DNA of 18,122 nucleotides from a virus (Duplodnaviria; Heunggongvirae; Uroviricota; Caudoviricetes). Position numbers and translations under genes: made by a program. Positions 1-16,258 of this stretch are shown in pieces; within the stretch, counting starts at the first letter, position 1; each line of letters opens with the position of its first letter. The notes beneath the pieces are model-generated. The model was not told the origin of the DNA. It searched no databases and saw nothing but the letters and a program-made list of their open reading frames with translations. The stretch is taken from IMG/VR virus record IMGVR_UViG_2778261416_000003, positions 1-18,122 of that record; one strand, 5' to 3'.

Positions 1-2091
1 ATGTATGTCATTGCAAAAGAACTGATTGGCGCGCCCGGAATGCCTGCTACAACAAAAGGTATTCGCCAGGCATTACAACGTTACGTACAAGGGAAAAGCT
101 GTTGTTCCCGTCGTCGCTCAGGCTCTAAAGCAACTGAATACAGCATCGACTGTTTACCTGAAGTGACGCAGCAGGCATTACGTGAACGCTACGCCCTGCA
201 ACTGATGACGCAAAAAGCCGATGAATCACCGGCTCCGGTGGTGACAAAGGCCAGACGCTTACCTGCCGTGGTTGATGCGGTGGAGGCATATCGCGGATCA
301 CCCCAACTGATGGTCGAACGCCTCAATGCCCTGACTGAAAACCAACGTAAAGTGGCAGAGGCACGAATAGCGATCGTCAGCGAGGTGCTGAAAATCGCGC
401 AACAACCCGGCTTTAGTTGCGCTAAGGCTATCCGGTTCCTCGTTAACAGCCTGGCACGATCACAACTGGACGAGCGCATTGTGGCAATGGTTGAGACGGC
501 GAACGCCAAAAAGGGAAACAGCCGCGCGTTGAGTGAAATCACGCTGAAACGCTGGATTGCGGCCTTTAACAAGGCACAGAACGCCGCTGAACGCCTGCTT
601 TTACTGGCACCGGGTAAACGCCAGGAAATAAAAGCCGAAGATATTAACTGGCTGCCCGAATTTCTGGCGCAGTATCGCCAGTCAAACGGCCGACCAATGA
701 CCGAGGCTTACGAGGATTTTGTTGCTGAATGGCAGCACCGGCACGCTGATGAGCCTTATATGCTCGATATCATGCCCTCTTATGACACCATTCGCCGCGC
801 AATGAAGAAACTGCCGGAAGTGGTGAAACAAAAAGGCCGGGTAACTGGCAGTGAATACCGTCAGCTTGAGGGATTCACGCGCCGCGACTGGTCCAGAATG
901 CCGGTGAATTATGTCTGGATTGGTGACGGTCACGGCATGAAGCTGAAATGCGCGCACCCGGTTCACGGGCGGCCATTCGCACCGGAAGTGACCTTTGTTA
1001 TCGACGGTGGCACGCGCTTTGTGGTGGGCTGGAGCCTTGACCTGGCTGAAAATGTTTTCGCCGTAGCCGGTGCCATACAGCACGGTATTCGCCATCATGG
1101 CAAACCGTTTCTGTATTACTCGGATAATGGCTCCGGGGAAACCGCCGACGTCCTGGATAAGGAGATTGTGGGGATACTGCCACGACTGGGGATTAATCAC
1201 CCGACAGGGATTGCCGGTAATCCGCAGGGACGGGGCATTATCGAACGGCTTAACCGCACATTACCGATGCGCATAGCCCGTAAATACCGCACCTATTTCG
1301 GGAAAGGAGCAGATCGCGAGACGTTACGTAAAACCAACCGCGATTTACGCTCGGCATTCAGTGCCCTGCAACAGGGCAAACGGCTGAACGCCCGGCAGCA
1401 GTCAGCGATGCGTGATTTACCGTCCTGGTCTGAACTGATTGATGCCATTCGTGACGGTGTTGAGTGGTACAACAACCGGCCGCACGATGAATTACCCATG
1501 AAGCCGAACGGTAAACATTACAGCCCGGCGGAGTTCAGAAAAAAACGCCTGGCGGAAGAGGACACGGAAATTGAATGGCTGTCCGATGTTGAACTGCGGG
1601 ATATGTTCCGGCCGATGGTGGAGCGCCCTGTAAGACGCTGTGAAATACGCTGGCTGAATAATATTTACTACGCGCCCGAGCTGCGTGACGAGCATGGCCG
1701 TAAGGTACTTATCAGCTATGACATTCATGATGCCGAACGAATTACCGTGCGCCGCCCGGATGGCAGCGTGATTTGCGAGGCGGTATGGGACGGCAATAAA
1801 CGCGAAGCCTTCCCTGTCAGCGCGGAATACTACAAACAGCAGCAGCGCCTTAAAGGCATGCGTAAACGCGCAGAGGAAAAAATCCGTGATGCCGAGGATG
1901 AGGTTGTCAACGTGCTGGAGCACAAGCCGCAGGAGCCCTGGCTGGAAAACATATACCGCCCTGTGGGTAATACGGTGACCGTTCAGCAACCGGTCGCTGA
2001 CGATGAACCTGATGAAGAATACGAGCGTAATTTCCAGCGGGGATTGCAACTGCTCGAAGCGAAATTAAAAGAAAGTGATCCGCTGGCCTGA
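1..2091 (+). CDS. A: Mu-type DDE transposase (MuA-like)
   Basis: 696-aa ORF; N-terminus (KELIGAPGMPATTKG...) parallels the Mu A end-binding domain; DDE-like motifs VWIGDGHG, YYSDNGSG and a downstream IIERLNR glutamate; followed directly by a MuB-like gene as in Mu. Confidence 0.9.
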   Translation: MYVIAKELIGAPGMPATTKGIRQALQRYVQGKSCCSRRRSGSKATEYSIDCLPEVTQQALRERYALQLMTQKADESPAPVVTKARRLPAVVDAVEAYRGSPQLMVERLNALTENQRKVAEARIAIVSEVLKIAQQPGFSCAKAIRFLVNSLARSQLDERIVAMVETANAKKGNSRALSEITLKRWIAAFNKAQNAAERLLLLAPGKRQEIKAEDINWLPEFLAQYRQSNGRPMTEAYEDFVAEWQHRHADEPYMLDIMPSYDTIRRAMKKLPEVVKQKGRVTGSEYRQLEGFTRRDWSRMPVNYVWIGDGHGMKLKCAHPVHGRPFAPEVTFVIDGGTRFVVGWSLDLAENVFAVAGAIQHGIRHHGKPFLYYSDNGSGETADVLDKEIVGILPRLGINHPTGIAGNPQGRGIIERLNRTLPMRIARKYRTYFGKGADRETLRKTNRDLRSAFSALQQGKRLNARQQSAMRDLPSWSELIDAIRDGVEWYNNRPHDELPMKPNGKHYSPAEFRKKRLAEEDTEIEWLSDVELRDMFRPMVERPVRRCEIRWLNNIYYAPELRDEHGRKVLISYDIHDAERITVRRPDGSVICEAVWDGNKREAFPVSAEYYKQQQRLKGMRKRAEEKIRDAEDEVVNVLEHKPQEPWLENIYRPVGNTVTVQQPVADDEPDEEYERNFQRGLQLLEAKLKESDPLA

Positions 2092-2173
2092 AATAAAAAA
2101 ATAACCCGAGGGGTGACTCAGGTTATTTGAGGTTTCAGTCTCGGAGAATGCTGTCTCAAGCGAGGTGAATAAT

Positions 2174-3106
2174 ATGACCGATATTAACGATGTAATCAAG
2201 ACCATTGATGAACTTATTGATGGCGGCGTACTGACGCAGTATGCCATCGCCAGAGAGGCGGGAATTTCCGACGGCACATTATCGGCTTTCCGTAAGGGAA
2301 AATATAAAGGCGATAACGCTGCTGTGGCTGCTTCCCTGCGCTCCTGGTATGAGAACTGGAATAAACAAAGCGCACTGCCGGAACCGCCGCAGTTTGTGGA
2401 AACTCAGACAGTCCAGGAGCTGCGCGCACTGTTTCAGGCGGTTCGCCTGATGGGCTGTATTAACGTTATTGTGGGCGTACCGGGTGTGGGTAAAACGGCC
2501 ACTGCCCGTAATTACTGCCAGGAGCAACCAAACACCTGGATGATCACCCTGTCACCCGCGCACTCCAGCGTCACGGAGTGTCTGCTGGAGCTGGCCGATG
2601 CGCTGGGGATTGATTACACCCGCGCGAACAAAGGGGCATTATCCCGCGCCATCCGCCGTCGCCTGATGGGAACGCGTGGACTGGTGATTGTGGATGAGGC
2701 GGATCATCTTGGTATTGACGGTCTGGAGCAACTCCGGGCAATTCAGGACGCCACGGGGATCGGGATGGTGCTTATTGGTAACCCGCGCGGATTGTTTAAA
2801 GGTGGACGCCGCGCCTTTGATGATTTATCGCGCCTGTTCAGCCGTCTTGCCCGTACAAAACAACTTCGCAAGGCCAAAAAGGCGGATGTGCTGGCCATTG
2901 CCATGGCGTGGGGGATCAGTGGTGAGGCCGAGCTGGCCGTCATGCAGGCTATCGCTGAAAAGCCGGGAGCGTTACGCGTTCTGACACATACGCTTAACCA
3001 GGCGTGGCTCACCGCCAGCGGTGAAGGCGCGGCGCTGACAGAAAAACATATTAATGCGGCCTTTAAAGAGGTTTATACCAACCCTGAATTACTCTCACAG
3101 GTGTGA
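2174..3106 (+). CDS. B: Mu B-like transposition target-DNA activator, AAA+ ATPase
   Basis: Walker A GVPGVGKT, Walker B LVIVDEADHL; colinear with Mu B (PEPPQFVETQTV, KPGALRVL); ATG 2174 preferred over the track GTG 2165 because GAGG lies about 8 nt upstream. Confidence 0.9.
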   Translation: MTDINDVIKTIDELIDGGVLTQYAIAREAGISDGTLSAFRKGKYKGDNAAVAASLRSWYENWNKQSALPEPPQFVETQTVQELRALFQAVRLMGCINVIVGVPGVGKTATARNYCQEQPNTWMITLSPAHSSVTECLLELADALGIDYTRANKGALSRAIRRRLMGTRGLVIVDEADHLGIDGLEQLRAIQDATGIGMVLIGNPRGLFKGGRRAFDDLSRLFSRLARTKQLRKAKKADVLAIAMAWGISGEAELAVMQAIAEKPGALRVLTHTLNQAWLTASGEGAALTEKHINAAFKEVYTNPELLSQV

Positions 3107-3108
3107 TT

Positions 3109-3330
3109 ATGGCGGTATTTAATATTCCTGATATTTACGGACGCTTTTACCTGGTTAATTTCGATAACGTGAAGGTGATTTCACTGGCCGAAAATAAAGA
3201 ATGTGGCGATTTACTTTTTGAATTTAATGACCGCACACGAATGGTGATATCTGCCGGACTTGATCGCGAAGGTGCGACAGAAGTTTACAGCGGAATATGC
3301 CGTTCTGTTGGTGCGAAACAAGTCAGCTAA
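3109..3330 (+). CDS. small early protein, 73 aa; position and size match Mu kil but sequence not recognised
   Basis: ORF starts 2 nt after the B stop; AGGTG upstream of ATG 3109; synteny with the Mu early region. Confidence 0.5.
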   Translation: MAVFNIPDIYGRFYLVNFDNVKVISLAENKECGDLLFEFNDRTRMVISAGLDREGATEVYSGICRSVGAKQVS

Positions 3331-3342
3331 ATGAGGTGTTAT

Positions 3343-3597
3343 ATGAATATGCAATCCTGCGGTAACAAAATGAATTTATTCGACTCCCTGAACAGCGCGC
3401 GCCGTCTGACCGAACTTGCCGGTGCGGTACTGGAACGCAGTAAGCGCTATCCGCAACGTTTTGCACTGAAAACCACGCCGCCGGTAGGCAACGTGCAGGG
3501 AACCGGTGAAATTGAAATCACCATACAGACCAACGGCCTGCGCCGCCGTGTGAAGGCCACCCGCATCAGCGGCTGCACGGTTTACTGGGAGGTGTGA
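3343..3597 (+). CDS. hypothetical early protein (~84 aa)
   Basis: ORF with GAGGTG 4 nt upstream of ATG 3343 (track start 3331 in the same frame). Confidence 0.5.
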   Translation: MNMQSCGNKMNLFDSLNSARRLTELAGAVLERSKRYPQRFALKTTPPVGNVQGTGEIEITIQTNGLRRRVKATRISGCTVYWEV

Positions 3598-3598
3598 G

Positions 3599-3880
3599 GT
3601 GAAAAAAAATCTCATTGCATGGGCGTGGTCGAGTGGTCTTATTGAGTTTGGTTACGTCCTGCCGGAAGGTGCATTGCCGATAGTTGCCGGAAAGCCTGCC
3701 ACGGTACGGCATGTGATTGAGGTTATGGCGCGTCATGGACGTGATGAACAGGAGCAGTTACTGGTTCCGGGGATACCGGAAGCGGTGACGGAGGAAGAAG
3801 CCTTTAATGCCATGATTCGGTTCTGCCGTGAGGTTAGACGCCGGGTCAGTTATCCAAACAGAACGAGGACCAGAGGATGA
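3599..3880 (+). CDS. hypothetical early protein (93 aa, GTG start)
   Basis: GGAGG about 8 nt upstream of GTG 3599; stop overlaps the next start (ATGA at 3877). Confidence 0.5.
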   Translation: MKKNLIAWAWSSGLIEFGYVLPEGALPIVAGKPATVRHVIEVMARHGRDEQEQLLVPGIPEAVTEEEAFNAMIRFCREVRRRVSYPNRTRTRG

Positions 3881-4149
3881 GTAAAGTCGTACGCATTATT
3901 TTCGAATACAAGGAAGATGTTATCTGCAAAAACTCTGATGGCAGCACGCACAGAGGGGTAAGTCTGGATATACGTTCAACCGGAATAAAGAAGAAAGATA
4001 ATGGACCCGCCATGATTTTTGGGGTGGTTATGCTGGCAGAAAGCAGAAACTTCGCAGAGTTTGTGGCAATGAAAGCCAGTGCATTCATGAAAGACAGAGG
4101 CATGGCTTCCGGGGTTATTAACGGTAATGAATTTAATCAACAGGGGTAA
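3877..4149 (+). CDS. hypothetical early protein, member 1 of a tandem paralogue pair
   Basis: AGAGGA RBS then ATG 3877; N-terminus MSKVVRIIFEY resembles the next gene. Confidence 0.55.
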   Translation: MSKVVRIIFEYKEDVICKNSDGSTHRGVSLDIRSTGIKKKDNGPAMIFGVVMLAESRNFAEFVAMKASAFMKDRGMASGVINGNEFNQQG

Positions 4150-4153
4150 TTCC

Positions 4154-4447
4154 ATGAGCAAAGTACGCGTTATTTTTGAATTTAATCATGTTTCGCATGA
4201 CGAAAAGTTGGCAGGCAATGACTGTGTTGAAGTGCATGAAAAGATTGGAGTGGATGTGAAAACAGAACGTGATACGGATAACAGGCCGACGTCACTCTGT
4301 GACGTTTATGCAAGTATTCTCCAGTATCACAGTCCTGCAATTATTCAGTTTCTCTCAGCGGAATTTCAGGCATCTGCACAGTCTTTTGGAGCGGATGCCA
4401 TCATTAAACGCCACCGCGTGCATAAAGCATCAGGCACACTGCAATAA
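4154..4447 (+). CDS. hypothetical early protein, member 2 of a tandem paralogue pair
   Basis: AGGGG then ATG 4154 (internal Met of track ORF 4127..4447); N-terminus MSKVRVIFEF. Confidence 0.55.
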   Translation: MSKVRVIFEFNHVSHDEKLAGNDCVEVHEKIGVDVKTERDTDNRPTSLCDVYASILQYHSPAIIQFLSAEFQASAQSFGADAIIKRHRVHKASGTLQ

Positions 4448-4458
4448 GGAAAAACAAA

Positions 4459-4989
4459 ATGGCTAAACGCGTTACAAAATTAAAGGCCGCAGCCGAGGCG
4501 GCACCGCAGACCCGGGAAGAAGTCAGCCGTGATATCCGCACCCTGGGAGATATTCAGCGAGAGGCGCTGCGCCTGGAAACGGCGATGAATGACGAAGTGG
4601 CAGAAATCACCGCCCGTTATACGCCGCAGATTGAAAATCTTAAAAAGCAAATCAAAGTGCTTTTTAAAGGGATTCAGGACTGGTGCAAAACCAACCGTGA
4701 TGAGCTGACGAACGGCGGCAAAACCAAAACAGCCAATCTGACCACCGGAACGGTGTCATGGCGGCTGGGAACGCCATCATGCAGCGTCAGCCGTGATGTG
4801 GAAGGTGTGATTGAAATGCTGCGCCGTATGGGGCTTGAGCGTTTCATCCGCACGAAAGAGGAAGTGAACAAGGAAGCCGTCCTGGCGGAGCCGGATGCTG
4901 TGAAAGGCATTGCCGGTATCAAGGTGAATAAAGGCGCTGAAAGTTTTTATGTCGAGCCTTTTGAACAGGACGCCGGACTGAATAAATAA
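4459..4989 (+). CDS. gam: Mu Gam-like host-nuclease inhibitor (Ku-like dsDNA end-binding protein)
   Basis: 176 aa; colinear with Mu Gam (MAK...LKAAAEA, GDIQREALRLETAMNDEVAEIT, ANRDELTNGGKTKTANL, ERFIRTKEEVNKEA, EPFEQ); AAGGA RBS. Confidence 0.9.
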   Translation: MAKRVTKLKAAAEAAPQTREEVSRDIRTLGDIQREALRLETAMNDEVAEITARYTPQIENLKKQIKVLFKGIQDWCKTNRDELTNGGKTKTANLTTGTVSWRLGTPSCSVSRDVEGVIEMLRRMGLERFIRTKEEVNKEAVLAEPDAVKGIAGIKVNKGAESFYVEPFEQDAGLNK

Positions 4990-5134
4990 CACCACATTAA
5001 TCAATTAAATATCACTTCATTTTAATTATGGCGCTCGCGTCAGGGGACTGCTTGCGCCTGAAAACAGAAAATAAGGGTTAAGAAATATGAAATACGTTTA
5101 TATCGTCATTAATAATGTGGTGGGGAAATAAATC

Positions 5135-5668
5135 ATGATTGATGCAAAAGTGCTTGAAGGGGTTAAAAACTGGCTGTGTATTTATGGCCGCCTGACCTGC
5201 GGTGTACTGGCTGAAAAAATGAATATGCCGCCATCCTCCATGGTTTATTTTCTGCGTGATGCGGTTGATGCAGGCGTGCTGACGGAATGTAACGGTTTTT
5301 ATGATATTCCGCGCCCCCGCCCGGTGCAGCCGGTTCGTCGCAAATGCAGCCAGGAATCTGCGGCTGATGATGTTCAGTGGTGCGGCTTCAGAAAATCCCT
5401 GCCATGGATTGAGGGGCATGATATTCCGTCGATGGCGTGGGAATTTGCTCAGGGCGTTCTGACCTGTGAAACCGTTTATGTGGTGGCTGAAGTTGATGAG
5501 CAGGCCATGAAAGAAGGCGTGCCCCAGTTTGTGATGGCGTATATCGACATACGCCTGGGCGTCATTATCTGCGGTTTAAGCGGCTGGAATATCACTGAAC
5601 ATGTTCTGCGCTACCTGATTGTTGACCGGACAGCAGCGCCTGCCGGGATATCTGCGGAGGTGGCGTAA
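5135..5668 (+). CDS. hypothetical early protein with a possible N-terminal winged-helix DNA-binding region
   Basis: 177-aa ORF after a 145-bp AT-rich gap; GGGGA RBS; N-terminal pattern GRLTCGVLAEKMNMPPSSMVYFLRDAVDAGVL looks HTH-like. Confidence 0.55.
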   Translation: MIDAKVLEGVKNWLCIYGRLTCGVLAEKMNMPPSSMVYFLRDAVDAGVLTECNGFYDIPRPRPVQPVRRKCSQESAADDVQWCGFRKSLPWIEGHDIPSMAWEFAQGVLTCETVYVVAEVDEQAMKEGVPQFVMAYIDIRLGVIICGLSGWNITEHVLRYLIVDRTAAPAGISAEVA

Positions 5669-6183
5669 TGTTCTTTAAAACATCAAACCCTTCCGCGCTG
5701 GCTGCGTGGCAAAAATACCAGCAGGACTGCCAGAAAGTTAAGGATGAGGCAAAACGCCTTGAGGCCGTGCTGAATGTTGCGTGCCGGTCGGTATTTGTAT
5801 CCGGTATCAGTGGATTTTACTTTAAGGGACTGCGTTTTACGGAGGACAAATATCCTTTTCATCGCGACTTATGGCGAAAACCGACTGCGTCGAATGGCTG
5901 GAGCTGCACACCGCGCACATCACGTATCCCTAAAACCCTGCGTGTTGCCTCTGATGAACTGAACAGTCTGTGGCGTGAATATTCGCCCGTCACGTATGCC
6001 AGAACCGATGCGCTGTTGTTCTGGTTGGGTATTGATTTCTCGGCAATCCTGTTTGGCCCTGTGAAGTGGTTCTGCGTTGACGATGTGATTTACCTTCAGT
6101 GCGGCGTAAAACCCGCAAAACAGAAAATGACCGAAATACTGTCTGATGAGTTTTATGCTGCTGAAAAGCGAGTCAGGGGGTGA
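5668..6183 (+). CDS. hypothetical early protein (171 aa)
   Basis: GGAGGTGG RBS; start overlaps the upstream stop (TAATG). Confidence 0.55.
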   Translation: MFFKTSNPSALAAWQKYQQDCQKVKDEAKRLEAVLNVACRSVFVSGISGFYFKGLRFTEDKYPFHRDLWRKPTASNGWSCTPRTSRIPKTLRVASDELNSLWREYSPVTYARTDALLFWLGIDFSAILFGPVKWFCVDDVIYLQCGVKPAKQKMTEILSDEFYAAEKRVRG

Positions 6184-6186
6184 TGC

Positions 6187-6738
6187 ATGATGAAATTACA
6201 ACCCATGGGACTAAAAGGTCGCGCCCCCGCTCATGTCCGTCCGTGGACACCTGAAGAAGATGCGCTGCTGATTGCGCTTTATTCATCCACCCCGGTTAAG
6301 GATATTGCTGCCAGAATAAAAAGAACTGTCTGGGCTGTATATAACCGGACTGGTGTATTGCGCAGTTCATACCCGGAGTTACTGAAATATAAACACCCAA
6401 GATTTACACCTGATGAAGATAAGTTTATTCGAAAAAATGCCAGAACAATGACCTGCCAGCAAATGGGAGAATATCTCGGACGTAATAAAGATTCTGTCAG
6501 ATGTCGGGCAGGAATGATTGGTGCTGGATTAACAAAGTGCGGAGAGTTACGCCCCGGCACGCACATATCTGATGATGATGTACGTCTTATACGTGCGCTG
6601 CGTGATTCCGATTACCCACGCCGTCTGTCATTCCGGGAAATTGGCGAAAAGTTTGGAATATCTGAACATTCTGCTCACGCAGTTTATTACCGTCGCCGGA
6701 CTGCCGAGGACGCTGTATTACGGGAGTTAACGCCATGA
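6187..6738 (+). CDS. hypothetical early protein with three tandem HTH-like repeats
   Basis: 183 aa; repeated module W/F-T-P-E/D-E-D ... I-A/G-x-x-I/L-x-R-T/N/S (WTPEEDALLIALY..., FTPDEDKFIRKN..., ISDDDVRLIRAL...SFREIGEKFGIS); AGGGGG RBS. Confidence 0.6.
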   Translation: MMKLQPMGLKGRAPAHVRPWTPEEDALLIALYSSTPVKDIAARIKRTVWAVYNRTGVLRSSYPELLKYKHPRFTPDEDKFIRKNARTMTCQQMGEYLGRNKDSVRCRAGMIGAGLTKCGELRPGTHISDDDVRLIRALRDSDYPRRLSFREIGEKFGISEHSAHAVYYRRRTAEDAVLRELTP

Positions 6739-7064
6739 TAACGACCTTATTTGTTGAATCAGATGAACCTCTTGTGTGTGCCGCCGGAATGCCGCTCTGT
6801 GGCGGAACGCTGACCGGTGTTTATTTCGGGGATTTACGCGGTTATCCCTGGCATTCACTGAATGATGCTTTCCCACCTGATATGGAGGCTGCCGTGCTGA
6901 TTGTTCAGTATGGTCACCGTCAGGAGCTGCGCATCGGCCATATGGGGTATGAAGGCTTTTTTGTTGATGAAGAAACCGGAGCCTGCCTTGAAGATGAAGA
7001 CGGACAGGTGACGCACTGGTGTCATATTTCGGCTTTACCGGAATTACGGGAGGTGAATGCGTGA
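6735..7064 (+). CDS. hypothetical early protein (109 aa)
   Basis: ATGA overlap with the upstream stop; GGGAG RBS. Confidence 0.5.
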   Translation: MITTLFVESDEPLVCAAGMPLCGGTLTGVYFGDLRGYPWHSLNDAFPPDMEAAVLIVQYGHRQELRIGHMGYEGFFVDEETGACLEDEDGQVTHWCHISALPELREVNA

Positions 7065-7411
7065 GAAGTTATATTGATAATGAAAAGCTGGAGACAATAA
7101 GCGACTGTCTTAGCTTGCTGGCAAAAATCAAAGAAACTATTGAAGAGATTAAATTTCAGCTTGAATACGCACCATGTGGCGATGATGCATGGCGTAATGC
7201 TGCCAGAAAAGCACTGGCTGTCTTTCAGAAACAACGCCGGGCTGTTGAATACCGCCTTGCTGTATTGCGCCAGGAGGAAAAGGAAAGAAATATAAGACGT
7301 CATGAACGCGTTAATGATTTCCTTGTTCGTGAATTAAAAGAGCGCGTGCCGGAGTCGGTGTTTTTTGAATGTGAGGCTATAGCCCGTAGCAAAGCACTGG
7401 AAACAGATTAA
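7061..7411 (+). CDS. hypothetical early protein (~116 aa, GTG start), probably coiled-coil
   Basis: GGAGG upstream of GTG 7061, which overlaps the upstream stop (GTGA); charged heptad-like sequence. Confidence 0.5.
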   Translation: MRSYIDNEKLETISDCLSLLAKIKETIEEIKFQLEYAPCGDDAWRNAARKALAVFQKQRRAVEYRLAVLRQEEKERNIRRHERVNDFLVRELKERVPESVFFECEAIARSKALETD

Positions 7412-7426
7412 GCAGGCAGGTGAATA

Positions 7427-7735
7427 ATGAGTATTGAATTAAGATCGTCTTATGAATATCGCAAAATCCTTATCGCCGGAGGCATGAAACCGGAAGATGC
7501 AGAGAAATTCGTTTCTTTTATGGATAAAGAATGTGACAAGCGGGATATGCCAGAAATTATTATGGATGACATGATTCTGGATTCAGCCGTGGCGTTAAGT
7601 CCGTTATGGATTGTGCATACTCTTGCGGAAATAGCTAAAAGAAGTGACAAGCAGGCGGCTGTCGCCGCCCTGCGATTACTGGCTGAATTAAGTTGTTCAG
7701 TCAATCCCAATACGTTCTTTGACGAACCTGGTTAA
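7427..7735 (+). CDS. hypothetical early protein (102 aa)
   Basis: AGGTGA RBS then ATG 7427. Confidence 0.5.
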   Translation: MSIELRSSYEYRKILIAGGMKPEDAEKFVSFMDKECDKRDMPEIIMDDMILDSAVALSPLWIVHTLAEIAKRSDKQAAVAALRLLAELSCSVNPNTFFDEPG

Positions 7736-8107
7736 CATTGATTTGGTAACTTCTTTAATTAGATCAAATGGTGCGTCTGTAAACTCCTTTTTGATTCTTT
7801 CAAGGATTGGTTTTTTTCTCAGGGCGTTAGCTAAATCATGCCCCTGCTGGGTAAGCATAATGGGCGTGTTTCTGAAACCAACGCCCAGAGAATGGAAAAA
7901 GAAACCAATATATTTGGGTGTTTCTGACTGCATATCACCATTAACAATTGAGCCATTATCAGCGAGAAGCATAAGATGAAAAACTTTTTTATCCTTTTCC
8001 TCTCCTTCTGCCTCAGCCATGCCCAGATCCTGTAGTGTAAGGAAAGGTGTTTCAGCATCCTGAAAAGTTGTGAGAATACTTAATACTTCATCGTAATCTA
8101 TTTTCAT
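7697..8107 (-). CDS. hypothetical protein (136 aa), antisense moron at the early/late junction
   Basis: Only sizeable minus-strand ORF inside the + strand early operon; visibly AT-richer than flanks; AAAGG RBS upstream of ATG 8107 on the minus strand; 3' end overlaps the 7427..7735 gene convergently by ~39 bp. Confidence 0.5.
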   Translation of the reverse strand: MKIDYDEVLSILTTFQDAETPFLTLQDLGMAEAEGEEKDKKVFHLMLLADNGSIVNGDMQSETPKYIGFFFHSLGVGFRNTPIMLTQQGHDLANALRKKPILERIKKEFTDAPFDLIKEVTKSMLTRFVKERIGID

Positions 8108-8171
8108 ATCGATACCTTTAGTTTTATCCGGGCGGCGTTGCCATGCCGCCTGTTGTTACGGAGACACGATA

Positions 8172-8592
8172 ATGAATCGCGCTTCCCTGATTACCTTAAT
8201 ACATGTCGCAAAACGCGATCTACAGCTTGACCATGAGACCTACACATCCGTACTACTGGCAGCCACCGGCAAACCCAGTTGCCCGTTCAGAACGGTTTTC
8301 TGCCACCGTGCGTGGCTGGTTCCGGGATGATGGCCGGTTATGGGATGTCAATCTGCTGACCGGTGTTTCAGCCCTGCGTTTCGGTATAGAACAGACTGAA
8401 CTGCTGGTCTGTCAGGTGGAGTTTTTACTTGATGAACATAACGGGGAAGTCACCCGGCTGGTACTGGCACCGCGTGACGGCTTTATCGTTCCGGCAGAGC
8501 CGGACAGTAAGGGCCGGGGTGGTTCCGGTGACGATGTTGATGCCTTTATTCGCCAGCAGATGAAAAAACAGGGGATCAGCTTTGATGAATGA
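8172..8592 (+). pseudogene. GemA (Mu gp16)-like gene that changes frame, or a deletion-fusion remnant
   Basis: GGAGA RBS then ATG 8172; frame-0 ORF MNRASLITLIHVAKRDLQLDHETYTSVLLAATGKPSC... resembles the DUF1018/GemA N-terminus from memory but stops at 8330; the only long ORF continues in the +1 frame (8203..8592), has no RBS, and ends overlapping the gp45-like start. Confidence 0.35.
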
Positions 8593-9196
8593 TGAAGTGT
8601 TCAGCCGCCTGATTGCCCCGGTAACGCGCGGTATTCGCCTGTTGTTTGGCCGGGGCGTTCTGACCGGCACACATGACGAACTGAAAATGCAGAATGTGCA
8701 GCTCACCGGCATGGACGGCGAAACCTTTGATGATGTGGAGCGTCCCCAGCAGTACGGGCAGATCAGCGTTCCCCTGCCGGGTGCGGAAACCTTTTTTGCC
8801 TGTCTGGGCGGACAGCGGGATCAGACTGTGGTGCTTGTGGTGGAAGACCGGCGCAGCCGCCCGACCGGACTCACAGCCGGAGATACGGGGGTGTATCACC
8901 ATGAGGGGCACCGGATACGGTTAACAAAGGATGGTCGCATTATTGTGACATGCAAAATGCTGGAGATTTACGCCGATGAGGGGATGCGGGTGGATACGCC
9001 GGAGGCCACCTTTACGGGCAATGTGACGGTGGATAAAAACCTGCATGTTAAGGGTAATTTCGTGCTTGATGGTACAGGTAAATCAGACGGGCTGTTCACG
9101 ATGTCTGATGCCGTTATTGCCGGGATCACCTATTCCGGCCATGTGCATCAGGATAACGGCAAAGGCAGTAAGACAGGAGCGCCGGAGAATGGCTGA
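8585..9196 (+). CDS. baseplate assembly protein V-like (Mu gp45 family)
   Basis: ~203 aa; position directly upstream of gp46/47/48 homologues; gpV-like N-terminal region; ATG 8585 overlaps the upstream stop. Confidence 0.8.
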   Translation: MNDEVFSRLIAPVTRGIRLLFGRGVLTGTHDELKMQNVQLTGMDGETFDDVERPQQYGQISVPLPGAETFFACLGGQRDQTVVLVVEDRRSRPTGLTAGDTGVYHHEGHRIRLTKDGRIIVTCKMLEIYADEGMRVDTPEATFTGNVTVDKNLHVKGNFVLDGTGKSDGLFTMSDAVIAGITYSGHVHQDNGKGSKTGAPENG

Positions 9197-9626
9197 TATT
9201 GCAATTGTATGGGATCAGGGGTGCGGTTCGCTGCAACTGAACGGTGCCGACCTGCTGACGGATGACAGTCTGCTGACGGCCGTTCTGATTTCGCTGTTTA
9301 CTGACCGCCGGGCGCTGGCATCGGATGAAATCCCTGACGGTACGCGTGACCGCCGGGGATGGTGGGGAGACAGTTTTCGCCCGCGTCCCATTGGCTCCCG
9401 TCTGTGGCTTCTCCGCCGGGAAAAAACGCTGGCCTCGGTGATAAGCCGTGCCCGTGCTTACGCGGATGAGGCGCTGGGCTGGCTCAGTCAGGATGGCGTG
9501 GCGTCATCCGTGGTCTGTCATGCAGAACGTGTGGGACACGCGCGGCTGGCGCTTTCGGTGCGCATAACCCTGCCTGATGGTTCAGTGAGGCCCATGATTT
9601 TTTATGCTGATCTTAAGGGGGAGTAA
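9189..9626 (+). CDS. Mu gp46-like baseplate protein
   Basis: ~145 aa from ATG 9189 (internal Met of track ORF 9045..9626, overlapping the gp45 stop); GWWGD motif; synteny. Confidence 0.8.
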   Translation: MADIAIVWDQGCGSLQLNGADLLTDDSLLTAVLISLFTDRRALASDEIPDGTRDRRGWWGDSFRPRPIGSRLWLLRREKTLASVISRARAYADEALGWLSQDGVASSVVCHAERVGHARLALSVRITLPDGSVRPMIFYADLKGE

Positions 9627-10708
9627 TGCCTTATCAGCCTTTACCGCTGGCACAGTTAATCACGCAGACACAGCAGGATATCAGCCAGCGCCTGCCCGGC
9701 TCGCAGCCGGGTGTGAATGAAACCACCCTGAATGCCATTGCTTACGCTCAGGCAGGGTTATCTGCTCAGGAGCATGAGCATCTGGCCTGGATTGCGCGTC
9801 AGATCATCCCGACCGAAGCCGATGAAGCCGAACTGCTGAAACACTGTGCATTCTGGGGCGTCATGCGTAAGCCTGCCTCTCGGGGGGACGGGCCGGTTCA
9901 GCTGATGCTGACCACGGATGCGGGGATCAAGGAAGGTGTGCTTCTCCAGCGAAGTGATGGCGTGGTTTACCGTATCACCACCTCCCTGACCGGTAAGGCC
10001 GGTACGCTGAATGTCAGTGTGGAAGCCGAAAGTGCCGGTCGTGCGGGGAATGCCCCGGCAGGGACAAAACTGACATTTATCACACCGCAGGCGGGGATCA
10101 ACCAGACGGCCACGGTGACCGGAACGGGGATCACCGGTGGTGCGGATGTGGAAACCGTGCCGGAGCTGCTTTCCCGTCTGGTTTTCCGGGTGCAGAATCC
10201 ACCGTCCGGCGGCACGCAGTATGATTTTGAACGCTGGGCGCGTGAAGTGCCGGGCGTGACGCGGGCATGGTGCCGCCCGGAATGGCCGCAGGCGGGCAGC
10301 GTGGGGGTAACGTTTGTTCAGGATAATAACCCGGACATTTTCCCCGGTGACGGTGATGTTCAGCGGGTGGCGGATTATATCCGCAGTCATGATGATCCGG
10401 CGACCGGCCAGCCTGTCGGACAGCCTCTGGGGCCGACGGTGACCGTGTTTAAACTGACCAATAAGCCGGTGCCCTTCAGCATCAGGATCATCCCGAAAAC
10501 ACCGGAGAATCAGGCGGCCGTAAAACAGGCGCTGACCGACCTGTTGTATAACGAATCCCGGCCCGGCGGTCTGGTTCTGCCGTCGTCTTTCTGGCGGGCG
10601 GTGGCAGGGGTGAAAAATCTGGAGGATTTTGAAGTGCGCAGTCCGCTGACGTCAGTTCAGGCGGGAGACAGTGAGCTGCTGACGGTAGGAGAAATCACAT
10701 GGCTGTAA
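9626..10708 (+). CDS. baseplate J-like protein (Mu gp47 family)
   Basis: 360 aa; GGGGGAG RBS; TAATG overlap with gp46; size and position match Mu gp47 / P2 J. Confidence 0.8.
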   Translation: MPYQPLPLAQLITQTQQDISQRLPGSQPGVNETTLNAIAYAQAGLSAQEHEHLAWIARQIIPTEADEAELLKHCAFWGVMRKPASRGDGPVQLMLTTDAGIKEGVLLQRSDGVVYRITTSLTGKAGTLNVSVEAESAGRAGNAPAGTKLTFITPQAGINQTATVTGTGITGGADVETVPELLSRLVFRVQNPPSGGTQYDFERWAREVPGVTRAWCRPEWPQAGSVGVTFVQDNNPDIFPGDGDVQRVADYIRSHDDPATGQPVGQPLGPTVTVFKLTNKPVPFSIRIIPKTPENQAAVKQALTDLLYNESRPGGLVLPSSFWRAVAGVKNLEDFEVRSPLTSVQAGDSELLTVGEITWL

Positions 10709-11259
10709 CCCTGACCCCGCATCAGCGCGCCCTGTTGCAGTTACTGCCTGACGGGCTGGCATGGGACAAGCGTCCGTCATCCGTACTGGCATCATTATGT
10801 CTGGGCCTCAGTCATTCGACAGCGCGTGTATCCTGGACGGGTAAACAGCTGCTTGCCGAGCGTTTCCCTGACACGTCGCGCCTGCTGCTGGAAGACTGGG
10901 AGCGTTATCTCGGGCTTCCCGAGTGTGATATGGCCGGAGCCACCCTCACGGAGCGACAGCGTTATGCCGGAAATAAATACCGGATGAAGCCCTCGCTGAA
11001 CCGTGAATTTTATATCCGGTTTGCGGCGGAGTTTGGTTATCAGATTGACATTCAGCCCTCACCGGATTCGCAGTGGGTCAGTATTGTCACGATTAACAGT
11101 GAAACCGGCTACCGGAATATGAATGTGCTGGATGATATTCTCACGCCGCTGCGTATTTATGAAGGCGGTGCGCTGGAATGTATTCTGAACCGTTATAAGC
11201 CTGCATGGCAGACGTTTATTTACGTTTATGCAAACAGCCATGAAGAGGAGACTATTTAA
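10699..11259 (+). CDS. Mu gp48-like tail protein (DUF2313 / YmfQ-like)
   Basis: 186 aa; AGGAG RBS; lies between the baseplate J-like gene and the tail fibre as in Mu and e14. Confidence 0.75.
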
Positions 11260-12140
11260 TGTTTCATGTTGATAATAATTCCGGCGTGGCGAATATGCCT
11301 GCGCTGGCACCGGCGCAGAGTAATACCACCACCTGGTTTACCGAAGGTGACGGACAAAAAGGTATCAGCTGGATTGGTCAGGACTGGCTGAATATTCTCC
11401 AGGCCGAACTGCTGAATATTCTGGCTGAAGCCAGTATTCAGCCGGATAAGGCGCAGTTAAACCAGCTTACGCTGTCCATTAAAGCCATTATCGCTGCGAA
11501 TGCCTTTTCCCGGAAAAATAACCTGAAAGAAATTGCTGATGCCGGTGCGGAGGCCCAGCGTCTGGCCCGTGGTTATCTTGGTCTGGGGACGCTTGCCACA
11601 AAAAACAGTCTTGGTCCCGCTGACATTAATGCCCTGGCGAAGGATCAGAATCTCGCCGACCTGGAGAATAAGGGAACCGCCCGTAATAATCTGGATGTTT
11701 ACAGCAAAAGCGAAGGTGATAACCGTTACCTGCGCAGGGAGCAGAACGGCGCAGACATTCCGGATAAAGGGGCTTTTATCGATAACGTCGGTTTACGGGA
11801 AACGGTAAACAGGGCGGCGAATGCCCTGCCATCGGACGGCACCGCCGTTGCCGCGAACAGGCTGGCAAATGCCCACACAATTAATGGTGTTCCCTTTGAC
11901 GGGACGCAGGATATCACTATCTCATCAGGAACAGTAACCGCCATAAGACTGGGGTCGGTGACCGCACATATGCCCGGAACATGGGAAAGCTGGGATCTGA
12001 ATCTGGGGGGCGGCAATGTTCTTACCGGAATTAAAGTACAGGATGTCGGTAAGAATACGGCAGATAACGTCGGCGGCGTGTATTACCGGCCGTTGCAGTA
12101 TCTGTTAAATGGAGCATGGGTGACGGCTGCAAGTATATAA
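11259..12140 (+). CDS. tail fibre protein, constant N-terminal part plus variable C-terminal part (current orientation)
   Basis: 293 aa; tail-fibre-like N-terminus; C-terminal [18 protein letters not shown] resembles the P2 H C-terminus; a gix-like site lies inside the gene at 11776..11801. Confidence 0.85.
11776..11801. repeat. gix-like recombination site, left (inside the tail-fibre gene)
   Basis: TTATCGATAACGTCGGTTTACGGGAA, about 22/26 identical to the reverse complement of the Mu gix sequence as remembered; the inverted repeat begins at its centre. Confidence 0.7.
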
Positions 12141-12149
12141 TGATATTCA

Positions 12150-12173
12150 GAAGGCCTTCCGGCCTTCTTTATT
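12150..12173. terminator. intrinsic terminator hairpin between the convergent fibre and assembly genes
   Basis: GAAGGCC-TTCC-GGCCTTC (7-bp stem, 4-nt loop) followed by TTTATT on the + strand. Confidence 0.6.
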
Positions 12174-12693
12174 ACTGTGGCTGCTCAGGCCATTTAATGG
12201 CGTTAAATTCAGCTTCTGTTTTAATGGCGGGTAGTTCCATTTTCTTCACCTGACTGATGTATGCCATCCATTGGGTAAGTGCTGCTCTGTCTTCATCGCT
12301 GATGGTGCCCAGTTGTAGCTCCGTTCTCCAGTCATTAATTTTTTCATATGCCTGATTAAGATATGACTGGCGCATTGCTTCCAGTTTTCTTGCGTAGTTA
12401 ACCGGAATACGGGAGATTATGCCATTATCAAACTTCCAGTTTCCTGAAATATCCGTGCCTTCAGGGAGTTCATCGACCTCAACCACAGAAAACCCCGCAG
12501 GATACAGCGCCGAGGCGTCCTGTGATATTGAGCAGATAACGCCGCTGTCAGGTGTTATGCAAAGTTTATATTTTTTGGTGAATAATGGCAGGGATTCGTA
12601 GAAATCCTTACCATCTTCACTCTGGAAATACTGAACATTATTACCATATGGCATATTTTCAGGATAATAACGGGTTATATTTTTTAGTTCCAT
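12172..12693 (-). CDS. tail fibre assembly protein (Tfa / Mu U' / P2 G family)
   Basis: 173 aa; SEDGKDFYE...DASALYPAGFSVVEVDELP and C-terminal WPEQPQ match Tfa-family proteins such as e14 TfaE as remembered. Confidence 0.85.
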   Translation of the reverse strand: MELKNITRYYPENMPYGNNVQYFQSEDGKDFYESLPLFTKKYKLCITPDSGVICSISQDASALYPAGFSVVEVDELPEGTDISGNWKFDNGIISRIPVNYARKLEAMRQSYLNQAYEKINDWRTELQLGTISDEDRAALTQWMAYISQVKKMELPAIKTEAEFNAIKWPEQPQ

Positions 12694-12744
12694 AAAATCC
12701 TCCTGGAAATAAATCTGTTTTAAAATATATTATTTACTGACTAT

Positions 12745-13107
12745 TTATAACTGAGATACCGTAATCCATGTACCTCCGACTAATTTTTGCAGGGGTCTGA
12801 ATGCTATAAAATCGTTTGAAGCATCAACTTTACTGTCAATCTGCAGGCCTGCCATAACATTACCGTACGCAGAGTAATATGCCCCACCGTACATTACCTG
12901 CCTGTTCTCTGCTCCCAGCCTGATATCCTGGATATATCGGGAATCCGCATCCTGCTGTGTTATACCAGAAGTGATGTTTATGTCCTGCGTCCCGTCAAAG
13001 GGAACCCCATTAATATTTCTTGGGGTGGCGAGTCTATTCGCGGCAACGGCGGTGCCGTCCGATGGCAGAGCATTCGCCGCCCTGTTTACCGTTTCCCGTA
13101 AACCGAG
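12745..13107 (-). CDS. alternative tail-fibre C-terminal cassette (S'v-like); start-less, expressed only after inversion
   Basis: Minus-strand frame from the gixR centre to stop at 12745 reads [24 protein letters not shown]...FRPLQKLVGGTWITVSQL, sharing the first ~23 aa and the C-terminal pattern with the + strand fibre; followed on the minus strand by the Tfa gene. Confidence 0.75.
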   Translation of the reverse strand, partial: LGLRETVNRAANALPSDGTAVAANRLATPRNINGVPFDGTQDINITSGITQQDADSRYIQDIRLGAENRQVMYGGAYYSAYGNVMAGLQIDSKVDASNDFIAFRPLQKLVGGTWITVSQL

Positions 13108-13118
13108 GTTTTCAGGAA
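13093..13118. repeat. gix-like recombination site, right
   Basis: TTCCCGTAAACCGAGGTTTTCAGGAA, about 22/26 identical to the Mu gix sequence TTCCTGTAAACCGAGGTTTTGGATAA as remembered. Confidence 0.75.
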
Positions 13119-13183
13119 AGCCAGGATTAACTCTGTTTTATTCCTCATGCGACAATTCCGGCTTTTTATAATAAGGAAATCGT

Positions 13184-13756
13184 ATGCTGATTGGGTATAT
13201 CAGGGTGTCAACAAATGACCAGAATACGGCGCTACAAAGAAATGCGCTGGAATGTGCAGGATGTGAGCTGTTTTTCGAAGACAGAATAAGCGGTAAGACA
13301 AGGGAGCGTCCCGGACTTAAACGCGCATTAAAGCGACTCCGGCCAGGGGATACCCTGCTGGTCTGGAAACTGGATCGCCTTGGACGCAGTATGCAGCACC
13401 TTGTCCTTTTAACAGAAGAACTCCGGCAACGCGGCGTTAACTTCCGCAGCATTACGGACAATATTGATACATCCACTCCCATGGGACGTTTCTTTTTCCA
13501 TATAATGGGCGCGCTGGCGGAAATGGAGCGGGAACTCATTATTGAACGTACACGCGCGGGTCTTGCTGCTGCCCGTGCTCAGGGGCGTCATGGCGGCAGA
13601 CCTCAGAAACTGACAGAGAAAGAGCGGGAGCAAATCGCCCGTTTGCTGGCTAATGGCGAGTCCCGTAAACAAATCGCACTGATATTTGATATTGGCCTTT
13701 CCACCCTTTATCGTTATTTTCCTGCCTCACCAGCTCCGTCACCAAAAGTACCGTGA
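13184..13756 (+). CDS. gin: serine DNA invertase (Gin/Pin/Hin family)
   Basis: 190 aa; MLIGYIRVSTNDQN catalytic-serine N-terminus, WKLDRLGRSM, GRFFFHIMGALAEMERELIIERT, C-terminal HTH; near-colinear with Pin/Gin; AAGGA RBS. Confidence 0.95.
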   Translation: MLIGYIRVSTNDQNTALQRNALECAGCELFFEDRISGKTRERPGLKRALKRLRPGDTLLVWKLDRLGRSMQHLVLLTEELRQRGVNFRSITDNIDTSTPMGRFFFHIMGALAEMERELIIERTRAGLAAARAQGRHGGRPQKLTEKEREQIARLLANGESRKQIALIFDIGLSTLYRYFPASPAPSPKVP

Positions 13757-13765
13757 CGCTTTTTT
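13737..13765 (+). terminator. candidate intrinsic terminator at the end of gin
   Basis: CGTCAC ... GTGACG (6-bp stem, 10-nt loop) followed by C plus T6 (13760..13765). Confidence 0.45.
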
Positions 13766-13841
13766 GAATTTCCGCAAAACACATATTTTTCAGCGGTCGC
13801 TATTCTGACTCTGTTTAATTCAGAAACAGGCAGAAAAGACG

Positions 13842-15896
13842 ATGTCAGACTCCAAGTGGAAAATGCTCTCCGCCATGCCCGGAGAGTTTTCAGTCAAGGT
13901 TGCCGGTGGCACGGTGGCATTTATTGAAAGCCCTTTCCGCCCTTCGGGTAATAAAGGGGGGATCACCTTCGCAGACTGCGTGATCCGCTTCAGCACGAAA
14001 GAGCCATTATGGGTAATGCCGGTATCCGGTAATCCCAGTGCAGAAATCACCAGTTCAGGCGTGACTGGCATCATTCCAATCACATCTGACGTGGCCGGAA
14101 CGCTCACGCCCTCCGACTGGAATGCACCGGATAACGCCGGGCCTTCCGGTAGCACGAATGGCAGCAGTTCAAAGCCGGAATATTACTTTGTTGTCATTCT
14201 CGCGGGTCAGTCAAATGGCATGGCCTACGGCGAGGGGCTGCCGTTACCGGATTCGTTTGACCGCCCGGACCCACGCATTAAGCAACTGGCACGCCGCAGT
14301 ACGGTAACGCCCAACGGTACGTCGTGTACATACAACGACATCATTCCGGCAGACCACTGCCTGCATGATGTTCAGGATATGAGCGGGATAAACCACCCGA
14401 AAGCTGATCTGGCAAAAGGCCAGTACGGGACTGTCGGTCAGGGGTTGCATATTGCCAAAAAACTGCTTCCCTATATCCCACAGAATGCCGGGATACTTCT
14501 GGTGCCCTGTTGTCGTGGCGGGTCAGCATTCACCACTGGAGCCGACGGCTCATTCAGTGAGGCCAGCGGTGCTTCCGCTGATTCTTCACGCTGGGGGGCC
14601 GGTAAACCTCTGTATCAGGACCTGGTAAGCCGCACCAAAGTCGCGCTGGCGAAAAACCCGAAAAACAAACTTCTGGCTGTGGTCTGGATGCAGGGAGAGG
14701 CAGACCTTGCCTCAGGAAGCCAGCAGCATAATAGTTTATTCACGGCCATGGTTCAGCAGTTCAGAACTGACCTGGCTCCGCTTGCTGCGCAGTGCGTGAG
14801 TGGAAATGCCACCACGGTGCCGTGGATTTGCGGTGATACCACGTATTACTGGAAAAACGCTGGCACCGATAAATATGAGGCAGTATACGGTGGCTACAAA
14901 GGCAAGGAAGCACAGAAAATTTTCTTTGTACCGTTCCTGACGGATGAGAATGGACAGAGCACGCCAACGAATGCTCCGGCGGAAGACCCGGATATTGTGG
15001 CTGTCGGGTATTACGGTGCAGCATCCCGAACCCAGGGCAGTTTTGTTTCGACACAGCGTGACAGCCATTTCAGCTCATGGGCACGCAGGGGCGTCATTTC
15101 AGACCGTCTGGCCTCAGCTATTATGCTCCATGCAGGGCGCACGGCTGAACTGATGCGCGGGCAGACCGTGACACCACCGGATGAGAAGCCGTCACCTGAT
15201 ACACCATCAAAACCGTCCACGCCACCCGCAGACACCACGACGATGAGTACGCTATTTGCTTACCGGGCATCTGAGTCTGAAGGACGGTTGACACCACAGG
15301 GTTGGGCTGCCGGAGGTGGCAAGGCTCAAATCGTGGATGATGCCGGAGCCAGCGGGGGTAAGGCAATGAAACTGACCAAGGAAACAGGAAGAGCCCCCTG
15401 GTACCTTGAGCATGATGCTGGTAATGGTGCGGACCTGCTGGGTAAAGGTGGTCTTGTCAGTTGTCGTTTTAAACTCGATGGCGCGCTTACGGCTAATCAG
15501 TACGCACTGGCGCTGTACTGGCCGGTTTCTGCCCTGCCGCAAGGGGTTACTCTGGAAGGAAATGCCGGTCATAACCTGCTGGCATCGTTCTACGTACAGA
15601 GCGATGCCACAGACCTTAACGTGATGTATCACAAAGGAAACACGGCGCAGAACACGAAGCTGGGGTCATTCGGCGCATTTAATAACGAATGGCATACGCT
15701 GGGCTTCCGTTTTGCCGGTAACAACAGTATTGAGGTGACACCGGTCATTGATGGTAAGGACGGGACACCATTCATGCTGTCGCAGTCTCCGGTCGGCACG
15801 TTTACGGCAGACAAGTTGCGCGTGACCGATATCACTAAAAATGCGACTTACCCGGTACTGATTGACAGTATCGTGGTGGAAGTGAATAACGCGTAA
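13842..15896 (+). CDS. prophage-type sialate O-acetylesterase (NanS-p-like; SGNH/SASA esterase core, Pro/Ser/Thr linker, C-terminal lectin-like domain)
   Basis: 684 aa; esterase-core motif ILAGQSNGMAYGEGLPLPD, then VPCCRGGSAF and WMQGEADL; PPDEKPSPDTPSKPSTPPADTTT linker; location after tail-fibre genes as for NanS-p in Stx prophages; start codon uncertain. Confidence 0.75.
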   Translation: MSDSKWKMLSAMPGEFSVKVAGGTVAFIESPFRPSGNKGGITFADCVIRFSTKEPLWVMPVSGNPSAEITSSGVTGIIPITSDVAGTLTPSDWNAPDNAGPSGSTNGSSSKPEYYFVVILAGQSNGMAYGEGLPLPDSFDRPDPRIKQLARRSTVTPNGTSCTYNDIIPADHCLHDVQDMSGINHPKADLAKGQYGTVGQGLHIAKKLLPYIPQNAGILLVPCCRGGSAFTTGADGSFSEASGASADSSRWGAGKPLYQDLVSRTKVALAKNPKNKLLAVVWMQGEADLASGSQQHNSLFTAMVQQFRTDLAPLAAQCVSGNATTVPWICGDTTYYWKNAGTDKYEAVYGGYKGKEAQKIFFVPFLTDENGQSTPTNAPAEDPDIVAVGYYGAASRTQGSFVSTQRDSHFSSWARRGVISDRLASAIMLHAGRTAELMRGQTVTPPDEKPSPDTPSKPSTPPADTTTMSTLFAYRASESEGRLTPQGWAAGGGKAQIVDDAGASGGKAMKLTKETGRAPWYLEHDAGNGADLLGKGGLVSCRFKLDGALTANQYALALYWPVSALPQGVTLEGNAGHNLLASFYVQSDATDLNVMYHKGNTAQNTKLGSFGAFNNEWHTLGFRFAGNNSIEVTPVIDGKDGTPFMLSQSPVGTFTADKLRVTDITKNATYPVLIDSIVVEVNNA

Positions 15897-15901
15897 GCAG
15901 G

Positions 15902-15943
15902 ATAAAAAAATGCCGCCGGTAAGGGAAAACAAGAAACCGGCGG
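15902..15943 (-). terminator. minus-oriented intrinsic terminator
   Basis: GCCGCCGGT ... ACCGGCGGC (9-bp stem, 15-nt loop); on the minus strand the hairpin is followed by T7 (+ 15903..15909). Confidence 0.45.
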
Positions 15944-15992
15944 CAAAAAGATCGTTATATCCAAAGCAAAAAATGCAGTGCACCTTTTTACC
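15903..15992 (-). ncRNA. candidate small RNA (~90 nt) divergent from the small membrane-peptide gene
   Basis: Minus-strand TTGACA (+ 16025..16020), 15-nt spacer, TAATAT (+ 16004..15999), then the terminator above; no ORF. Confidence 0.25.
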
Positions 15993-16040
15993 TAACAGAT
16001 ATTACCGGTGTCAACACCATGTCAATAATTGGGAGGGATA

Positions 16041-16238: not shown

Positions 16239-16258
16239 CCCGCATAAGGAGGATATAC

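Follow-up and report, generated by a model that had tools for sequence, protein, structure and literature searches.

A three-module, D5-like helix-turn-helix protein encoded in the early operon of an Escherichia coli Mu-like prophage

The D5 protein of the virulent phage T5 (T5.118, YP_006946.1, 255 residues) was reportedly characterized in biochemical work of 1979-1980 as an abundant protein that binds duplex DNA cooperatively. Its gene is located among the replication genes of T5, and the T5 GenBank note on it reads [quoted passage not shown]. A 2026 preprint describes D5 as a helix-turn-helix (HTH) protein that is toxic alone and that triggers the type IX retron-Kva2; the triggering is backed by co-expression toxicity and by mass photometry, in which D5 remodels the retron complex, while the contact between D5 and msdDNA is an AlphaFold3 prediction (PMC13405049). 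In phage Mu, the functions of the genes of the semi-essential early region have been summarized as "largely unknown" (PMC3820752). Here we analyze a gene that connects these two subjects, found in an 18,122-nucleotide stretch of viral DNA (positions 1 to 18,122 of the IMG/VR record IMGVR_UViG_2778261416_000003; hereafter the window), which is the left, early part of an Escherichia coli Mu-like prophage. The complete gene occupies positions 6187..6738 on the plus strand, stop codon included, exactly as given in a preliminary description of the window, and encodes a basic, all-alpha early protein of 183 residues (~21 kDa) with three HTH modules (R1, R2 and R3). A DNA-identical copy in E. coli JMF1 is represented in RefSeq as WP_000977057.1, "SANT/Myb-like DNA-binding domain-containing protein".

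Its family in PHROGs is PHROG 323, "transcriptional regulator, D5-like", with an E-value of 1.3e-52 (180 bits, with residues 2-182 aligned to positions 80-256 of the 319-position profile), and T5 D5 itself is a member as well (E 1e-71). Profile-profile comparison of the two by hhalign (probability 96.7-97.4%, E 1e-11, 28% identity) aligns residues 17-171 collinearly with D5 residues 71-232 across all three modules, and the order of Pfam matches in D5 is the same, with Myb in the first module, HTH_23 in the second and Sigma70_r4_2 in the third. The two share the module signatures PWTPE-, -FTPDE- and -EI(A/G)EK-G-S, and both are products of early genes situated amid replication or other early functions. 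They differ in that D5 alone carries an extra N-terminal region of about 70 residues and an Ala/Lys-rich tail, whereas the 183-residue protein alone carries a conserved, Pro/Gly-rich arm of 16 residues before R1; further, the latter is found in temperate Mu-like and P2-like phages as opposed to a virulent one, and D5 is the sole member of the pair with an experimental record. On the whole, the 183-residue protein is a D5-like, Myb/SANT-type multi-HTH phage protein, of a family and domain type that are already present in RefSeq and PHROGs.

The N-terminal arm (residues 1-16; 6187..6234, on the plus strand like all the segments below) is basic and predicted to be disordered, with a predicted local distance difference test score (pLDDT) below 50, and its consensus M-x-L-x-P-M-G-x-P-G-x-x-P-A-H is kept across 40 family members down to ~30% identity. 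It is followed by R1 (residues 17-61; 6235..6369), a Myb/SANT-like three-helix bundle (helices 22-31, 37-44 and 48-59) with an invariant W20 and the signature W20-T-P-E-E-D ... D-I-A-A-R-I-K-R-T, for which the Pfam Myb_DNA-binding match is sub-threshold at 20.7 bits, and the corresponding part of the family profile matches every c-Myb repeat. R2 (residues 70-115; 6394..6531; helices 75-84, 90-97 and 101-110) is another HTH of Myb/SANT-like form, in which F73 replaces the Trp and the signature is F73-T-P-D-E-D ... Q-M-G-E-Y-L-G-R-N. R3 (residues 122-171; 6550..6699; helices 129-140, 149-156 and 160-169) is a divergent HTH resembling those of sigma-70 region 4 and of the AsnC type, with the signature I127-S-D-D-D-V ... 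E-I-G-E-K-F-G-I-S and sub-threshold matches to the Pfam HTH_AsnC-type, HTH_10 and Sigma70_r4 models at residues 130-164; its first two helices are the best-conserved part of the family (D-x-D-V-x-L-I-R-x-L-R-D and T-F-x-E-I-x-x-K-F). The chain ends in a conserved helix of low column entropy (residues 172-183, helix 173-181; 6700..6735; T-A-x-D-x-x-x-x-E-L-L-P). Consistent with this arrangement, an AlphaFold2 model contains three successive three-helix bundles and one C-terminal helix (pLDDT 82.4, predicted template modelling score, pTM, 0.52). The repeat period is about 52-53 residues, and the folded module comprises about 45.

The preliminary description had viewed the product as three tandem modules sharing one signature, and the quoted signatures are indeed present. 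From one sequence taken alone, the evidence for repetition is marginal: local alignment with BLOSUM62 against 2000 shuffles gives a z-score of 2.8 for R1/R2 (44/2000) and 1.4 for R2/R3, with nothing for R1/R3. As these statistics are too weak to decide the matter, they were replaced by profile-profile comparison with shuffle controls, in which the three segments of a family alignment of 40 sequences, non-redundant at 90%, were compared as profiles by hhalign. Here the relationship is significant for R1/R2 (probability 98.8%, score 72.5, z 34 against column shuffles), for R2/R3 (91.4%, score 31.9, z 12) and for R1/R3 (82.9%, score 27.7, z 7); for each pair, 0/40 column-shuffled controls matched or beat the observed score, and all three pairs are in register on the helix 2-turn-helix 3. 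What has to be amended is the equality of the three repeats: R1 and R2 are genuine copies of a single Myb/SANT-type unit, and R3, which scores higher against the models of sigma-70 region 4 and of the AsnC-type HTH, is a more distant HTH. There is no repeat at the DNA level within the gene, which indicates that the triplication is ancient.

A comparison of the family profile with structures in the PDB recovers c-Myb (E 1.1e-8) and B-Myb (1.2e-7), followed by the tandem-HTH CRISPR-repeat-binding protein 2lvs (2.8e-6) and the Mos1 HTH (2.4e-4); with a shallow alignment the matches are weaker. Among diverse family members, Myb_DNA-binding is matched in 17/27 (E 0.01 or better) and Sigma70_r4 in 20/27, and a Foldseek search against predicted viral structures yields 25 matches below E 0.001, including multi-HTH proteins of phage Goslar, HTH-carrying endonucleases and a "D5 protein". 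With the alignment to T5 D5 and an isoelectric point of 9.9, to which every module contributes by being basic, these relationships bear out the preliminary suggestion of HTH modules of the Myb/SANT or sigma-region-4 type. Like the R1R2R3 region of c-Myb and B-Myb (PF00249; PDB 1h88, 1a5j), the phage protein has three HTH modules at a spacing of ~53 residues, and it displays tandem three-helix bundles with an HTH about 52 residues apart. Unlike these eukaryotic proteins, it lacks the hallmark of three spaced Trp or other aromatic residues in each repeat: only the first of the three is kept, in R1 alone, as the invariant W20, R2 has F73 in the corresponding position, aliphatic residues occupy the remaining ones and conservation does not extend to W49; moreover, R3 is not Myb-like.

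Assignment to other HTH families can be considered in the same terms. The sigma-70 family combines regions 2 and 4, but Pfam and NCBIfam searches found no region 2 in the 183-residue protein, and the region-4-like matches at residues 145-164 are weak (Pfam 12.1 bits; TIGR02937 12 bits, the only hit in NCBIfam). In the AsnC/Lrp family a winged HTH is joined to a C-terminal alpha-beta RAM effector domain, whereas the 183-residue protein shares nothing more than the sub-threshold HTH match (19.1 bits at residues 130-164, the threshold being 27). We rejected membership in this family on account of that score, the lack of a RAM/AsnC_trans_reg domain and a model that is all-alpha, with no beta strands. 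Hence, the name "AsnC family protein" attached to alleles 70-74% identical to the present one is a mis-transfer from the HTH alone. In comparison with the DNA-binding domain of GcrA (PDB 5yiu), the protein has neither a Pfam GcrA match nor a C-terminal sigma70-binding domain. No defence-system family in PADLOC-DB matched it at E 1 or better, and a profile search of the genome contigs with the family alignment confirmed no locus.

A second relative lies in Mu itself. The preliminary description could not map the protein to any Mu gene, and there is indeed no three-module orthologue at this position in Mu; it had, however, missed Mu gp9 (Mup09, formerly E8; NP_050613.1, 99 residues; NC_000929 5482-5781), which is directly upstream of gam, is named "transcriptional regulator, D5-like" in the RefSeq record and belongs to phrog_323 (E 5e-29). 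Residues 4-96 of gp9 align with R2 plus R3 (residues 65-168) by hhalign with a probability of 98.4% and an E-value of 8.6e-15, a similarity too weak for tblastn, which explains why a tblastn search had returned no match in Mu. Thus, gp9 is a two-module homologue without R1 and the N-terminal arm. Both proteins come from the semi-essential early region of transposable phages, but gp9 adjoins gam, whereas the three-module gene is downstream of the gp11 and gp12 homologues, where Mu has gp13 and gp14. Further, the phages with gp9, namely Mu, D108, SfMu and Yersinia Mu-like phages, all lack the three-module gene, and examination of the locus DNA found a gp9 homologue in 0 of the 41 Mu-like and 21 P2-like loci that do. 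The two- and three-module forms are therefore apparently mutually exclusive in the sampled genomes.

Taken together, the fold relationships and the basic character of the modules suggest that the protein very probably binds DNA. As to its role, we favor a D5-type duplex-DNA binder that modulates early transcription and/or replication, a reading to which we assign a probability of roughly 0.55; the function would be an accessory rather than a core one. With the third helix of each module placed in the major groove, the modules would jointly span ~15 base pairs, or some one and a half helical turns, and the Pro/Gly-rich arm may contribute contacts with the minor groove or with a partner. Binding of this kind early in lytic growth would then modulate transcription and/or replication, a mechanism that agrees with the record of T5 D5, which lists DNA binding, a requirement in replication and late transcription, and the shut-off of early genes. 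The preliminary description had also raised the possibility of a regulator acting on host or helper-phage DNA; the data contain no sign of a helper phage.

Several observations weigh against this reading. The protein is below every Pfam gathering threshold, including those of the Myb/SANT families PF00249 (20.7 bits against 24.4) and PF13921 (17.3 against 22.9). A whole-chain Foldseek search against the PDB gave nothing below E 0.001, a result which can be attributed to the relative orientation of the modules not being fixed in the model (pTM 0.52, resembling beads on a string). The alignment with D5 begins at D5 residue 71, so that the N-terminal ~70 residues of D5 have no counterpart here and any D5 functions depending on them need not transfer. 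A search of 3000-8400 for DNA-level repeats or possible binding-site arrays produced only short, chance-level matches and hence no candidate array nearby, and in the literature we found no experiment on either the 183-residue protein or Mu gp9, nor anything on Myb-like proteins in Mu-like prophages. Finally, the three putative recognition helices are the most variable elements of the family (entropy 2.2-2.7, as against 1.0-1.3 in the scaffold helices), a pattern that fits non-specific binding but equally fits the recognition of specific sites by individual alleles.

The last point leads to the first alternative, namely a sequence-specific transcription factor, which would repress or activate a single promoter, or a small number of them, in the phage or the host. 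Between Mu-like prophages, the genes neighbouring the 183-residue protein are 92-98% identical, as compared with 70-74% for the protein itself, and the divergence is concentrated in an allelic cassette which sliding nucleotide identity delimits to residues 88-168 (6448..6690, plus strand), from helix 2 of R2 to helix 3 of R3, where identity falls to 0.53-0.77 from 0.9 or more in the flanks. For the whole gene, nonsynonymous divergence (dN) is 0.16-0.18 and synonymous divergence (dS) 0.56-0.68, as compared with 0.01-0.04 and 0.14-0.27 in the flanking genes; selection on the gene is purifying, with a dN/dS of about 0.25-0.3 between alleles. In the cassette dS reaches 1.4-1.9 with a dN/dS of 0.14-0.21, whereas residues 1-87 have a flank-like dS of ~0.3 and a dN of 0.10, which exceeds that in the adjacent genes about three- to fivefold. 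The near-saturated dS and low dN/dS indicate that the cassette is an old segment, imported by recombination and maintained under purifying selection, and the same values rule out recent positive selection as the source of the allelic divergence. Conservation across the family is highest in helices 1-2 of R3, in the linker joining R2 to R3 and in the two terminal elements, the N-terminal arm and the C-terminal helix.

Such a long-maintained cassette is what might be expected if exchange of R2-R3 swapped operator specificity in the manner of immunity-type modules, as is the concentration of family variation in helix 3 of each module upon conserved scaffold helices; additionally, the tandem repeats of c-Myb, the HTHs of Tc3 and Mos1 and the Cbp-type tandem HTHs, all matched in our searches, read specific sequences. 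Nevertheless, the early region (3000-8400) yielded no repeated sequence that might serve as an operator, no non-coding segment co-varying with the alleles was identified, and the occurrence of the family in unrelated backbones (Mu-like, P2-like and T5) speaks against a regulator dedicated to a single promoter architecture. We thus consider a specific factor of this kind possible but rather unlikely.

The conservation of the N-terminal arm and C-terminal helix, both outside the HTH cores, could instead point to modules that serve chiefly in protein interaction, by analogy with SANT domains or with the contact between GcrA and sigma70, and that redirect RNA polymerase or a transposition or replication factor. 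This is hard to reconcile with the strongly basic character of all the modules, with the recorded DNA binding of the homologous D5, with the absence of a Pfam GcrA match and with the occurrence of the unit in fusions with helicase and HNH nuclease domains, in which it would be expected to target DNA; accordingly we regard it as quite improbable. In a further alternative, the protein is the leftover DNA-targeting part of a mobile cassette of the homing-endonuclease type and performs no phage function. There are weak matches to PHROG families of HNH endonucleases, tblastn detects the unit at 34.5% identity in mycobacteriophage features annotated as HNH endonuclease or DNA methylase/methyltransferase, and the mosaic replacement of the cassette inside the gene recalls such mobility. 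But the protein has no nuclease domain and its model is all-alpha, its full-length architecture and position are kept in 62 loci, and every segment is under purifying selection, which together make this very improbable and the least credible of the alternatives. The D5-type duplex-DNA binder therefore remains the reading that we prefer.

The HTH unit also occurs in other architectures. Long metagenomic proteins (P0023, P0026, P0030 and P0031; loci L069-L072) contain the same unit, of 46 residues, as 9-13 tandem copies. P0023 combines a helicase domain with 9 copies, in which helices 1-2 are near-invariant and helix 3 is hypervariable, a pattern that recalls programmable repeat DNA binders; P0031 is encoded in an ordinary bacterial chromosomal context, beside prfC-like and squalene-synthase-like genes. 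In T5 itself, the 928-residue "replication origin binding" protein T5.108 (T5 9546-12332) carries an InterPro-based annotation as helicase plus SANT/Myb, and a hidden Markov model (HMM) of the unit built from R1 and R2 detected no copy in it.

With respect to genomic distribution, 41 Mu-like viral contigs present the order Gam, gp11-like gene, gp12-like gene, three-module gene, variable small genes, GemA, Mor and lysozyme. Orthologues of 36-46% identity occur in the early operon of 21 P2-like contigs and of the Citrobacter phage Shae_phiSM, with cox/Ea22-like genes on one side and the replication gene A on the other. It is thus an accessory module of early operons, mobile among the backbones of temperate phages. 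Of 5426 complete E. coli genomes, about 200 have a copy; among the 201 matching records, 31 are of the present allele type (nucleotide identity of at least 80%) and 170 of a 60-80% type, which is the commoner allele and the one that RefSeq names "AsnC family protein".

In the window, the gene is tightly packed between its neighbours. The TGA stop of the upstream gp12 homologue (6181-6183, plus strand) is 3 nucleotides before its start and a Shine-Dalgarno-like AGGGGG (6175..6180, plus strand) is 6 nucleotides 5' of the ATG, while at the other end an ATGA (6735..6738, plus strand) overlaps its stop with the start of a downstream 109-residue gene (phrog_6925; 6735-7064, plus strand). The spacing to the upstream stop together with the Shine-Dalgarno element suggests translation from a polycistronic early transcript, and the gene appears to be translationally coupled to both neighbours. 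A scan of 4900-8400 for promoters and terminators found sites no more numerous than in shuffles, and this chance-level density near the gene points to an internal cistron of a long early operon; hence, we place its transcription in the long early (Pe) operon of the Mu-like prophage, where the gene stands between the gp12 homologue and the gemA-mor end. A 95-residue open reading frame is present on the opposite strand (6279-6566); the plus frame alone explains the family conservation and the HMM matches. An Rfam search of the window gave no match.

The remainder of the early region comprises transposase A (1-2091), B (2165-3106), a Kil-like gene between B and Gam, Gam (4459-4989) and the homologues of Mu gp11 (5135-5668; phrog_1949, Pfam Gp11_C) and gp12 (5668-6183; phrog_2314). 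A 136-residue gene on the minus strand within the early operon (7697-8107; phrog_585, with a weak sub-threshold DUF2513 match) has the orientation and relative position of Mu gp15, just before gemA. The window is collinear with intact Mu-like contigs over 1-8283, up to ~100 nucleotides into gemA. Past the junction near 8283 (8178-8600), it continues with a truncated baseplate-hub gene (open reading frame 8203-8592, matching phrog_177 only at positions 345-447 of 623), after which come baseplate, tail-fibre, Gin and Com/Mom genes. This represents an internal deletion in which the Mor, lysis, head and tail genes are missing, and consequently this prophage copy is defective. Between the Gin invertase and Com/Mom, a 684-residue protein (13842-15896) combines a SASA (sialic-acid-specific acetylesterase-type) domain with DUF6645, and could be a cargo gene product or a tail-associated carbohydrate esterase. 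Rearrangements are also seen in related copies: that of E. coli JMF1 (locus L002, 10151-11074) has IS903B in place of the stretch equal to window positions 7260-11318, and in a viral contig (L005, near 1917-1924) ~323 nucleotides of the transposase gene, equivalent to 848-1170 of the window, are gone.

These observations do not define a new kind of system, since early operons of phages can be expected to encode basic multi-HTH proteins. The analysis contributes a connection to gp9/E8, an apparent exclusion of either form by the other, an allelic cassette inside the gene and a corrected view of the alleles named "AsnC". If the proposed reading holds, it links three separately annotated entities, namely T5 D5, the only one with a functional record, Mu gp9/E8 and a protein carried by about 200 of the 5426 complete E. 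coli genomes. More speculatively, D5-like multi-HTH proteins, including those of T5, Mu (gp9), the present prophage and the P2-like phages, might constitute a general class of early DNA-coating or transcription-switch proteins in phages, in which the R2-R3 cassette swap and the fast-evolving R1 of Mu-like prophages would reflect a switch of DNA specificity or an escape from host immune sensors. We hold this broader proposal to be unlikely as it stands; were it true, one of the long-unexplained genes in the semi-essential early region of Mu would gain its first function, and the 183-residue protein would be predicted to trigger or evade retron-type defences in an allele-dependent manner.
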